Of a DNA stretch of 24,511 nucleotides, positions 13,148 through 14,651 are shown piece after piece. The position numbers and the translations under genes are program-made. A model generated the notes under the pieces. The model was not told the DNA's origin and did no database searches. It saw nothing but the letters and a program-made list of their open reading frames with translations. Position 1 is the stretch's first letter. Each line of letters begins with the position of its first letter. Origin of the DNA: a virus (Duplodnaviria > Heunggongvirae > Uroviricota > Caudoviricetes); IMG/VR virus record IMGVR_UViG_2874956758_000006, positions 1 to 24,511 of that record; one strand, written 5' to 3'.

Positions 13148-13570
13148 TCAATGCACAATGACAGAATCGTCGGACGCTCCACCACCACTGAAATGCGCTT
13201 TCCGGTAAACGGCCTGGACTGCATCATCATGCGCATCAATTGCCGTACTCAACGCTTCCTGCGCCGCCAGTAATGCACGGCGCTCCAGGGTATCGAAGAT
13301 GCAGAGTCGGTGACGCAGCTCGCGCGGAAGGATTGCCAGAATTGCTGGGATCAGCTTCTGAATTTTTTCCCTTTGCGTTTTCGTTTCACCTTTCAACCAA
13401 CGGTGATAGATATTCTGCTGATTGTTCCAGTCCTTGCCTGGTACCAGGGGCAATTCACCGCCCCCCTGGCGCAGATATTCTTCAGTAATTGCGTTAGCGA
13501 CCCACGCCTGCCCTTTTTCGGCAGCCAGGGCTAACAGCACTGATTCGATGTGCTCATGCCTGATTTTCAT
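13148..13570 (-). CDS. YdaT-like protein (Rac-type CII-analogue / YdaT family), 140 aa
   Basis: MKIRHEH... start, size and position immediately downstream of the Cro-like gene as in Rac-type immunity regions; family assignment from memory. Confidence 0.5.
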   Translation of the reverse strand: MKIRHEHIESVLLALAAEKGQAWVANAITEEYLRQGGGELPLVPGKDWNNQQNIYHRWLKGETKTQREKIQKLIPAILAILPRELRHRLCIFDTLERRALLAAQEALSTAIDAHDDAVQAVYRKAHFSGGGASDDSVIVH

Positions 13571-13829
13571 GAATCAAATCCGGTGTATTTTGTGTGTTAG
13601 CCTTACATCCAACAGGTAAACCGTCGGTTGGATTAGGGTAAATGTCTGGTCGAAGCTCATGGGGTGTAACCTCGAAATTCGTTACTTCAGCAACACGTAA
13701 TGCTTTTTCAGGGCTGAATCTTTCATAGCCCCCCAGCACTCGACTTACATGCACCTGAGATAAACCCGTTAGCTTCCCAAACTGTAGCTGGGTGATGTGT
13801 TTCTCTTTTAAATAATCTCTTAAGTTCAT
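13554..13829 (-). CDS. Cro/YdaS-like HTH regulator
   Basis: HTH (ITQLQFGKLTGLSQVHVSRVL) and ELRPDI motif characteristic of YdaS/Cro-like proteins; ATG 13827-13829 with SD GAAGG (the listed ORF start at 13835 is TTG); divergent from the repressor gene. Confidence 0.6.
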   Translation of the reverse strand: MNLRDYLKEKHITQLQFGKLTGLSQVHVSRVLGGYERFSPEKALRVAEVTNFEVTPHELRPDIYPNPTDGLPVGCKANTQNTPDLIHENQA

Positions 13830-13936
13830 AGCCAACCTTCTACGTTATGCTTCGAGCAAATATCGGCCCTGCTAATCTGAAATATCAATAGTCAGACTAT
13901 CTTTGATAATATTGGTAAAACAAATAAACTCTATGT
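13830..13936. promoter_or_regulatory. divergent promoter/operator region of the immunity switch (PR/PRM-like)
   Basis: 107-bp AT-rich spacer between divergent cro-like and repressor genes; 13-bp palindrome ATAGTCAGACTAT at 13888-13900; repeated (A)AATATC motifs. Confidence 0.45.
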
Positions 13937-14398
13937 ATGAGAAAAACACGCGAAGTGATTGCAACTCCAGAAGCGAGCAAGAATTTAAAAGCCGCATGGA
14001 ATGCAAGAAAAAAAGAGTTGAAGCTGACTCAAGAGCTGGCGGCTGAGTTGTTGGGATTCGAATCTCAAGGCACCGTTAGCCAGTATCTGAACGGCAAGAT
14101 ACCGGTAAATACCGACGCTGCGCTAAAATTTGCGGCTCTGTTAAAGATAAAACCAGAGGACATTCGAGAAGACCTTAAGGACTTAATGAATTATGTAAGA
14201 TCATCAGATACTTATGATGATAGCTTTTCAGGCAAAGGATGGAGGCTGGTCAATGAAGAACAGGCAGAATTACTTAACCTCTTCGAGATTCTACCTGCGT
14301 CAGAAAAAGCCAAACTCCTTAACCAGCTACGTGGACTAAACAAGCTCTACGAGGAAGCCTTCGAGAACATGCTGGCACTAAAGAAACGTAACCAGTAG
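13937..14398 (+). CDS. prophage repressor, RacR-like (HTH_XRE, 153 aa; too short for a LexA-type peptidase domain)
   Basis: HTH LTQELAAELLGFESQGTVSQYLNG; divergent from the cro-like gene; no SD upstream, possibly leaderless like lambda cI. Confidence 0.6.
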   Translation: MRKTREVIATPEASKNLKAAWNARKKELKLTQELAAELLGFESQGTVSQYLNGKIPVNTDAALKFAALLKIKPEDIREDLKDLMNYVRSSDTYDDSFSGKGWRLVNEEQAELLNLFEILPASEKAKLLNQLRGLNKLYEEAFENMLALKKRNQ

Positions 14399-14424
14399 CC
14401 ACCGCTCACTACCCCATCCACAAC

Positions 14425-14455
14425 AAAAAAACCGACGTCTTAGTCGGTTTTTTTT
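14425..14455 (+). terminator. rho-independent terminator (A-tract, hairpin, T-tract; potentially bidirectional)
   Basis: AAAAAAACCGAC-GTCTTA-GTCGGTTTTTTTT directly after the repressor gene. Confidence 0.7.
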
Positions 14456-14499
14456 GTGCCATAACTTCTGCAGATCGGCTGTATAACTAATATTTTCCC

Positions 14500-14528
14500 T
14501 TGAAAAAACATTTACATAGTTACTAAAT
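14500..14528 (+). promoter_or_regulatory. candidate sigma70 promoter (PL-like) with overlapping palindrome
   Basis: TTGACA-like TTGAAA at 14500-14505, 17-bp spacer, CTAAAT at 14523-14528; palindrome TAGTTACTA at 14517-14525. Confidence 0.3.
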
Positions 14529-14651
14529 CAAAAATATCATCCGCCATACCACTGACTTAAAATATCCGCACTACTAATATATTTGTCAGGAACAGCACGG
14601 CGCTGTAGGTTTTAGTTCCGCCACCCGGCGTTAAGGGGAAATGAGGTCAGC

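Follow-up and report, generated by a model that had tools for sequence, protein, structure and literature searches.

The closest described relatives of the locus considered here are the immunity switches of the Rac prophage carried by Escherichia coli K-12 (RacR/YdaS/YdaT), of CP-933P of E. coli O157:H7 (PaaR2/YdaS/YdaT), of Qin (DicA/DicC) and of phage lambda, and functions of analogous switches have been described for PaaR2/YdaS/YdaT (PMC8630535; see also PMC5917428) and for DicA/DicC/Rem (bioRxiv 10.1101/2023.04.14.536235). We analysed a stretch of 24,511 nucleotides of viral DNA (Caudoviricetes; IMG/VR record IMGVR_UViG_2874956758_000006, positions 1 to 24,511), called the window at its whole length, in which the gene for a 153-amino-acid (aa) repressor lies divergent from a Cro-like gene followed by ydaT. 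It is highly probable that this region is the lysis-lysogeny (immunity) switch of a decayed Rac-like lambdoid prophage of E. coli or Shigella, with the layout of the lambda switch. It appears to constitute a new, uncharacterised instance of a well-known kind of system, whose operators are here assigned from the sequence.

In K-12, racR is essential owing to the toxicity of ydaS/ydaT (PMC5700373; PMC5700377). Expression of K-12 YdaT is toxic, and its footprinted box, ATGATTCATGAAAATCAA, holds the ydaT ATG inside its spacer (PMC11879457). CP-933P offers a close parallel to what is predicted in the window: its cI-like repressor is short, non-cleavable and made from a leaderless mRNA, the intergenic region, of ~97-107 bp, holds several repeats that cover pR and pRM, and past the repressor operon there is a pL with its OL sites (PMC8630535). 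There, YdaT is a cII analogue acting on TTGATT-N6-AATCAA (PMC8630535; PMC9986795), a box located at the end of ydaS (PMC9986795), and it activates a pRE-like promoter for the repressor (PMC8630535). Leaderless repressor mRNAs are known for lambda cI, PaaR2 and RacR (PMC8630535; PMC9638921). The DicA switch, in turn, is bistable and RecA-independent; derepression by Rem, by heat or urea, and spontaneous switching all proceed without RecA (bioRxiv 10.1101/2023.04.14.536235).

The genes of the window on which the comparison turns are the following.

13937..14398, plus strand: prophage repressor, 153 aa, with HTH_3 as its sole Pfam match
13554..13829, minus strand: Cro-like YdaS-family gene, 91 aa, with the ELRPDI motif (Pfam YdaS_toxin and HTH_3)
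13148..13570, minus strand: ydaT, for a transcription factor predicted to be a cII analogue; its product (140 aa) shares 98% identity with YdaT of K-12 Rac
14652..14807, plus strand: ydaF (DUF1391), 51 aa, first gene of the pL operon (Pfam DUF1391, 100.3 bits)

A Rac-type architecture was taken to need, on one side of the repressor, a divergent YdaS-family gene with ydaT and replication genes after it and, on the other, ydaF followed by recE, ralR and int. On the Cro side of the window, ydaT is followed by the gene of a replication O-like protein (12302-13057, next downstream by PHROGs), a DnaB-like helicase in two open reading frames (ORFs), a DUF1627 gene and insertion sequence (IS) elements, beyond which are found the genes for portal, terminase and Rz. 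Past the repressor, the order is ydaF, one copy of IS2, a regulator of the Ash/Rha type, a gene of the RecE family, the small RNA (sRNA) RalA, a fused xis-int ORF and the host gene ybhA; no kilR was identified in the window. This order agrees with K-12 Rac, with phage Rac-SA53 and with the prophages of O103 and O157 strains, so that the Rac/lambdoid immunity architecture proposed in an earlier, sequence-only reading of this DNA holds on both flanks. The same cassette is found in intact Rac-type prophages of E. coli O103:H2 and O157:H7 and in Rac-SA53, accompanied by kilR, recE, recT, ralR, xis and int, and matching architecture exists at Escherichia albertii, Hafnia and Salmonella loci. Its spacer type is present in about 180 of 5426 complete E. 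coli genomes (~3%); the genome-wide locus search yielded only three further full-length relatives.

A close relative is Rac-SA53 (GenBank KU052037), a full-length Rac-like prophage of the same immunity type, which encodes Rem, retains a complete late region and has consensus pR, O1 and pL. Its repressor, deposited as 'dicA', is 98.7% identical to that of the window, its Cro-like protein is 99% identical over the aligned part, and the right and left operator regions (OR and OL) are near-identical. The differences are that its Cro-like gene ends sooner (82 aa) and that it lies beside ttcA, whereas the window is IS-ridden and lies beside ybhA. A literature search found no experimental paper on this repressor switch.

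With K-12 Rac, gene order and flanks are shared, ydaT is 98% identical in protein and 94.8% in DNA, and homology extends over ydaF and the ydaG leader. However, this DNA homology ends at 13576 and restarts only at 14612, and the gap of 13577-14611 therefore delimits a heterologous immunity cassette of ~1 kb, a mosaic pattern classic for lambdoid phages. At 14612-14639, the leader shows no difference from that of K-12 Rac ydaG and resembles the sequence before ydfA, the DUF1391 (ydfA/ydaF) gene downstream in Qin; this shared leader, standing before the first pL gene, marks the left recombination boundary of the cassette. Beginning with AGTTCCGCCACCCGGCGTTAAGGGG... (14612-14651), it is common to the window, K-12 Rac ydaG (L002 3466-3493) and Qin ydfA (L028 ~2970-3008) despite their differing repressors. 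The pL leader as a whole is much shorter in the window than in K-12 Rac.

What the cassette brings in is, in the first place, a different repressor. By sequence comparison and an AlphaFold model, it is built of a lambda-cI-type N-terminal domain (residues ~11-89), a disordered linker and a DicA-type two-helix C-terminal domain (107-152). The N-terminal domain resembles that of lambda cI in sequence (E = 3.5e-4 to 1e-3 against PDB chains) and in fold, residues 11-89 being modelled with a pLDDT of ~90 and having 1lmb as best Foldseek match (target-normalised TM-score 0.78). Over residues 14-89, it is also 49% identical to the cI N-terminal domain of some Stx2a phages, one such record being described as LexA family. 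Past the linker, the model places helices at 107-117 and 121-152, some 45 residues, of which a stretch of 42 aa is 38% identical to DicA residues 91-132 (BLASTP, E = 8e-6). BLASTP pairs only these C-terminal regions of DicA and the window repressor, not their N-terminal domains. The DicA model (NCBIfam NF007257) is the repressor's only NCBIfam match, with 35.2 bits over residues 18-152; since the cut-off is 101, we take it for a distant relative of DicA rather than a member of the subfamily. Qin differs further in that DicC is unrelated to the Cro-like protein of the window and that Qin has no YdaT, while the window has no rem.

An autocleavable repressor was defined as one that ends in an S24 domain having a cleavage site and a Ser/Lys dyad. 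No such domain is seen in this protein: Peptidase_S24 (PF00717) gives no Pfam match, no S24 fold appears in the AlphaFold model, and the domain is absent on alignment to S24-bearing relatives. The cleavable C-terminal domain that would have contradicted the proposal of a short, non-LexA-like repressor without peptidase is thus missing. The S24-bearing database homologues (P0022, P0024-P0029) share the recognition helix and have tails ~100 aa longer. The further label of a RacR-type repressor has to be abandoned: BLASTP against K-12 RacR gives E = 26, and the RacR equivalog model (NF049929, cut-off 200 bits) finds no match at E <= 0.01, whereas K-12 RacR itself scores 244.6 bits. RacR, with a weak HTH_17 match, is unrelated in sequence to the HTH_3 repressor of the window; both are non-cleavable.

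The lack of an S24 domain excludes RecA-stimulated self-cleavage and, unlike in lambda, direct SOS induction. The claim of a non-SOS control is consequently a fair inference as far as direct cleavage is concerned, but control could still be exerted indirectly through an antirepressor. Derepression would need an antirepressor (as Rem for DicA), heat or destabilisation of the protein, or stochastic switching. Inside the pL operon, a protein with Ash and Phage_pRha domains (17017-17865, plus strand) has antirepressor-like PHROG matches, and its gene carries, in its 5′ part, Rfam matches to isrK and C4-antisense RNA (17068-17144 and 17169-17256). The module resembles the P1 ImmI and Gifsy-type antirepressor modules. 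The gene is also present in O157:H7 strain 2571 and absent from the O103 prophage (L001) and from Rac-SA53, which makes any tie between it and the repressor speculative.

For the Cro-like gene, the start is the ATG of 13829 rather than the TTG of 13835; its Shine-Dalgarno sequence, GAAGG, stands at 13836-13840, and the product has 91 aa, as in the annotation of its relatives. With PF15943 (YdaS_toxin) this product scores 30.9 bits, barely over the cut-off of 30; its identity to K-12 YdaS is 32%, the ELRPDI motif being aligned; orthologues 96-98% identical to it are called 'YdaS family' by PGAP. It also matches PHROG 35 and, weakly, the PDB entries 8c7k and 8co2 ('antirepressor protein Cro'). 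Between the window and its relatives, this gene shows 10-13 synonymous and 2-4 non-synonymous codon changes. The next protein, YdaT, scores 44.7 bits with PF06254 (YdaT_toxin; cut-off 21), belongs with PHROG 163 ('CII-like transcriptional activator') and has full-length matches in PDB 8bt1 and 3c4r. Both ORFs and their profile matches agree with the divergent ELRPDI-bearing gene and YdaT-like gene of the sequence-only reading, and the toxicity attributed there to YdaT is supported by its 98% identity to the K-12 protein, toxic on expression (PMC11879457). For comparison, the YdaT of CP-933P is, according to its paper, 31% identical to that of Rac. A cognate inverted-repeat box stands at the start of the gene:

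13560..13577, minus strand: YdaT-box, TTGATT-CATGAA-AATCAG, covering both the ATG of ydaT and the final codons of the Cro-like gene

It is the sole match in the window to TTGATT-N6-AATCAA at one mismatch or fewer, and at up to two mismatches no further YdaT site exists in the spacer between repressor and Cro-like gene. As in K-12 Rac (PMC11879457), the box lies at the ydaT ATG.

The family names YdaS_toxin and YdaT_toxin, together with the essentiality of racR in K-12, could suggest that the locus is a toxin-antitoxin-like module, with YdaS and YdaT as toxins and a divergent repressor solely to silence them. We hold this to be extremely improbable. The genes stand in a full lambdoid context, with replication genes after ydaT and a pL operon in the order ydaF, recE, ralR and int; YdaT binds DNA as a cII analogue and has a defined box (PMC9986795; PMC11879457), which is found here; and YdaS of CP-933P behaves like Cro (PMC8630535), Jobling's critique arguing likewise (PMC5917428). 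Moreover, the HigA and HipB NCBIfam models give only 16-19 bits on the Cro-like protein, against cut-offs of 48-72. The locus does not show the two-gene autoregulated operon and toxin bound by its cognate antitoxin that define a type II system, an interpretation rejected in the published work (PMC5917428; PMC8630535). In CP-933P, the toxin-antitoxin genes paaA2-parE2 follow the repressor, which they do not here. We return, then, to the immunity switch as the preferred reading.

The control sites of such a switch are expected in the 107-bp spacer between the divergent genes, where hexamer pairs were sought with a consensus promoter scan.

13859..13888, minus strand: candidate pR, -35 TTGATA at 13883-13888 and -10 CGATAT at 13860-13865 (17 nt) or GATATT at 13859-13864 (18 nt), from the promoter scan
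13903..13930, plus strand: candidate pRM, TTGATA (13903-13908)-16-TAAACT (13925-13930), from the promoter scan
13863..13875: predicted operator O1, TCGGC-CCT-GCTAA (TTAGC-CCT-ACTAA in relatives), over the pR spacer and -10, proposed from its symmetry and pattern of variation
13888..13900: predicted operator O2, the perfect 6-1-6 palindrome ATAGTCAGACTAT, centred on 13894, between the back-to-back -35 hexamers
13912..13924: predicted operator O3, TTGGT-AAA-ACAAA, with 4/5 symmetric pairs and the G..C core common to the other sites, over the pRM spacer and -10

At the pR site, the relatives read TTGATC-17-TAATAT, and the positions of -35 and -10 are kept in five diverged immunity groups. The predicted pRM start, ~13937, coincides with the A of the repressor ATG and no Shine-Dalgarno sequence lies upstream; the repressor mRNA is therefore predicted to be leaderless, as in K-12 Rac. 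Four further groups, Hafnia, L008, Salmonella and a metagenome-assembled genome, whose repressors are only 63-71% identical to that of the window, also have a -10 that ends 6 nt ahead of the repressor ATG. The repressor start has another ATG 4 nt upstream of it (13933-13945 region); among database variants, some (P0002, MYEK...) have their start shifted to this upstream codon by a 1-nt change in the A-run, so the point at which a leaderless message begins may differ among strains.

From these sequences we infer that the repressor sites are inverted repeats of the form ~TTAGT-N3-ACTAA, three of them (O1, O2 and O3) in the spacer. The perfect 13-bp palindrome that had been noticed earlier is indeed at 13888-13900 and, in its 5-N3-5 form, reads ATAGT-CAG-ACTAT. 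There are eight perfect 6-1-6 palindromes in the window, and at least one arises in 3.9% of shuffles of the 107-bp spacer, so that ATAGTCAGACTAT is suggestive alone and convincing only in its context. In that context it is very probably an operator: it is unchanged in L001, L003 and L004, has one substitution in E. albertii, and in the 63%-identical group L008 a different palindrome occupies the same position. Across five E. coli-type loci, O3 and pRM do not vary, and the substitutions cluster in the centres of O1 and of the OL1 and OL2 sites discussed below. The site centres at 13869, 13894 and 13918 are 25 and 24 bp apart, at about -68, -43 and -19 from the predicted pRM start. In the O157:H7 relative L003, three 5-3-5 repeats with a G..C core and 25/24 bp spacing are seen, an arrangement reproduced in 0 of 20,000 dinucleotide shuffles; without the core requirement, an equally symmetric and equally spaced triple appears in 0.75% of them.

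This geometry is close to that of lambda, whose three operators are also ~24 bp apart. The lambda centres lie at about -19, -42 and -66 of pRM (OR2 at ~-42), and the starts of lambda pR and pRM are 82 bp apart, against a predicted 84 bp in the window. K-12 Rac likewise has divergent repressor and Cro-like genes ~100-120 bp apart with a leaderless repressor promoter, three N3-spaced inverted repeats in the spacer (PMC9638921) and more over pL, at a spacing of 24-25 bp; the operators themselves differ, being (T/A)TAGGC-N3-GCCTA(T/A) there and a predicted ~TTAGT-N3-ACTAA here. In CP-933P, the reported operator repeat is different again, GTTTAGTAA. Qin shows candidate inverted repeats with TTAGT/ACTAA-like arms, although with a centre of 4 nt instead of 3. 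These are repeats of the type TGTTAGT-CATA-ACTAACA, in the dicA-dicC spacer and downstream of dicA (L028 2365-2385 and 2878-2930); no published DicA operator sites were found in a literature search.

A second group of control sites is predicted beyond the end of the repressor gene.

14425..14458, plus strand: bidirectional intrinsic terminator after the repressor gene, with 12-nt perfect arms and a U8 run
14552..14580, plus strand: predicted pL, CTGACT at 14552-14557, 17 nt, TAATAT at 14575-14580, its position conserved in relatives
14540..14552: predicted OL2, over the pL -35, the weaker site, its centre 25 bp from that of OL1
14565..14577: predicted OL1, over the pL spacer and -10
14474..14494: further operator-like site, ATCGGCTGT-ATA-ACTAATATT, the best matrix match outside the training sites, its arms kept in relatives
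14511..14540, plus strand: possible secondary promoter TTTACA-18-TATCAT, the best consensus match in the region (10/12)

The strong terminator reported earlier is well supported: 14425-14454 with its T-run folds at -18.1 kcal/mol (z = -6.45), and on the opposite strand too. In relatives pL is TTGACT-17-TAATAT, and each of the five immunity groups has an equivalent promoter, equally far from the conserved leader. When a matrix trained solely on the half-sites of O2 and O3 was scanned over the full 24.5-kb window, two of its four best other matches fell in the 253-bp region after the terminator, at 14474-14494 and at 14561-14581 (OL1). K-12 Rac shows RacR-type repeats at the corresponding positions over its own pL, and in lambda, too, pL lies past the repressor operon.

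The sequence-only reading had drawn this side differently, placing RacR-type dimers on TAGT/ACTA half-sites of both ATAGTCAGACTAT and TAGTTACTA, the latter overlapping a leftward promoter TTGAAA-17-CTAAAT. We regard this model as quite improbable, although part of it rests on features that do exist: both palindromes and both hexamers (14500-14505 and 14523-14528) are present; TAGTTACTA (14517-14525, 4-1-4) lies ~24-25 bp from predicted OL2, at the position expected of an OL3; its left half, ATAGT, fits the register of the N3 model; and it sits within the spacer of a good consensus promoter, TTTACA-18-TATCAT. The half-sites cannot be shared, however, since they are 1 nt apart in TAGTTACTA and 3 nt apart in ATAGTCAGACTAT, which are incompatible spacings. 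Palindromes of the 4-1-4 kind are at chance level, with 88 in the window and at least one in 64% of shuffles of the post-terminator spacer, and TAGTTACTA is broken in two loci with the same repressor, O157:H7 L003 (ACAAAA) and E. albertii L011 (ACCAAA). As a -10, CTAAAT is without the key A of position 2 and reads CAAAAT or CCAAAT in relatives, the pair was not reported by the consensus scan, and the promoter conserved in position in all groups sits 50 bp further downstream. Added to this, the repressor is not RacR. The TTTACA-18-TATCAT promoter itself has a TATAAT -10 in L003, and its position is not kept outside the E. coli-type group.

Other candidates in this region were discarded: a promoter-like site on the minus strand (14589-14561), whose -35 is not conserved in relatives; a 16/19 direct repeat (13858-13876 and 14560-14578), reread as O1 against OL1 and only 13/19 in relatives; and a put/nut-like RNA in the pL leader, whose structure is not above shuffles (z = +1.0). 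Rfam gave nothing significant within 13400-15100, and neither N nor a nut system was identified, a further difference from lambda.

Taking the immunity switch as the preferred reading, its working could be proposed as follows. The repressor would be translated from a leaderless pRM transcript, and its dimers would bind the operators through the lambda-cI-type helix-turn-helix domain: O1 over the pR spacer and -10, O2 between the -35 hexamers at ~-43 of pRM, O3 over pRM, and two or three more sites over pL, beyond the repressor's own terminator. Bound in this manner, it would close both pR (Cro-like gene, ydaT and replication genes) and pL (from ydaF on, in the direction of the recombination genes). 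Repressor residues E33 and E37 are aligned with lambda E34 and D38, the acidic residues of the lambda positive-control patch, and the repressor at O2 would probably stimulate its own promoter. The helical DicA-type tail would provide oligomerisation in place of the S24 domain, and these operators would presumably be contested by the Cro-like protein. YdaT, as a cII analogue, would bind the box at its own start codon; in lambda the place of this tetrameric protein, which recognises an inverted repeat, is taken by the unrelated cII, and that of the YdaS-family protein by Cro. Loss of the repressor should free the toxic YdaT.

Several observations weigh against this reading, either in the assignment of the sites or in the state of this copy. 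The criteria for the triple-site shuffles were picked post hoc, and the operator consensus was drawn by eye and tested afterwards; the left half-sites are poorly conserved (TTAGC, ATAGT, TTGGT, TCCGC, GCTGT); and the AT-rich arms overlap -10-like hexamers, which confounds the matrix scans. At the Hafnia, L008 and Salmonella loci, no clear three-repeat pattern or same consensus is seen: what they share is the position of the promoters and of the central palindrome, not the sequence. As for induction, no Rem homologue was detected in the window (best E = 0.09), and a search for LexA boxes gave no match to the strict CTGT-N8-ACAG and 14 with one mismatch, none convincingly placed, so that the box search offers no evidence in the window for an SOS control through LexA. 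Finally, the window carries private changes: CGATAT for TAATAT in the pR -10, CTGACT for TTGACT in the pL -35, and TCGGC and GCTAA for TTAGC and ACTAA in the arms of O1, which is thereby degenerate (3/5 symmetric pairs). With IS elements and frameshifts throughout the prophage, the switch may no longer be a complete bistable circuit.

Pushed further, these points would make of the locus a relic, a decaying cassette whose promoters and operators no longer form a working switch and exert residual repression or none. The OR variant of the window is unique, its best match among the 5426 E. coli genomes being 94.4%; the pR -10, both O1 arms and the pL -35 are unlike those of all relatives examined, O1 falling under the symmetry threshold; the DnaB-like gene is split and xis-int fused, two IS2 copies and other IS elements are present, and Rem is lacking. 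We nevertheless consider a mere relic rather unlikely. The three regulator ORFs are intact, with mostly synonymous differences from their relatives (the repressor gene differs at 6-7 of 462 nt), a pattern that points to purifying selection on all three; O2, O3 and pRM are identical to those of relatives; the alternative pR, TTGATA-18-GATATT, still has 9/12 consensus positions; and an intact toxic ydaT argues for a continued need of repression. The private changes in control sites, the IS insertions and the frameshifts lead us to think that the cassette is retained, probably to silence ydaT, in a prophage unable to grow. Compared with L001, L003, L004 and L011, substitutions within 13851-13883 and 14541-14590 pile up in the centres of predicted O1, OL1 and OL2 and just after the pL -10, while the repressor gene is ~98.5% identical.

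We would also advance, as a possibility on the doubtful side, that the repressor is a natural domain swap, in which a DNA-binding domain like that of S24-bearing repressors became joined to a DicA-type helical tail. The recognition helix is nearly identical to that of S24-bearing, presumably SOS-cleavable repressors, mainly from metagenome contigs, and relatives in the N-terminal domain only are present in the genomes of several proteobacterial genera. If this were true, a switch of lambda geometry would have been shifted from RecA-dependent induction to control by antirepressors or stress, and the unusually fast divergence of O1/pR and OL1-OL2/pL between cassettes that are otherwise nearly identical could be seen as selection to retune or escape immunity in cryptic prophages.

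In broader terms, Rac-like prophages would comprise at least three heteroimmune flavours (RacR, PaaR2 and the present combination of cI N-terminal and DicA C-terminal domains) on a shared lambda-like wiring, PaaR2 being compared here by its published description. A predicted map of operators and promoters becomes available for an immunity type that is also that of Rac-SA53, an LT-II toxin prophage. Since the cassette guards a ydaT 98% identical to a toxic K-12 regulator, its derepression matters for prophage-induced filamentation and killing and for the induction of toxin phages. Beyond the guarding of ydaT and the immunity type, it is an ordinary prophage control region.

The remainder of the window bears the marks of decay already alluded to. 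In the DnaB-like helicase (10920-12339, minus strand), an N-terminal ORF (11824-12339) overlaps a C-terminal one (10920-12074), a split that looks like a frameshift and would leave the replication module probably dead. An Excisionase domain is joined to lambda-Int arm-binding and integrase catalytic domains in a single ORF of 411 aa (22222-23457, plus strand); since relatives keep xis and int as two genes that overlap, it is probably a frameshift fusion. IS elements occupy 1-1300, 7432-9811 and 15300-16640: IS2 is present twice, an IS30-like element sits inside one of the IS3 family, and one of the IS2 copies cuts off ydaF and its neighbours from the remaining pL operon. The ybhA host flank is 99.7% identical to E. 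coli and, together with the IS content, suggests an IS-rich E. coli or Shigella lineage. The antitoxin sRNA RalA, partner of the type I toxin ralR, is present at full length (21931-22109, minus strand; 216 bits), as in Rac.

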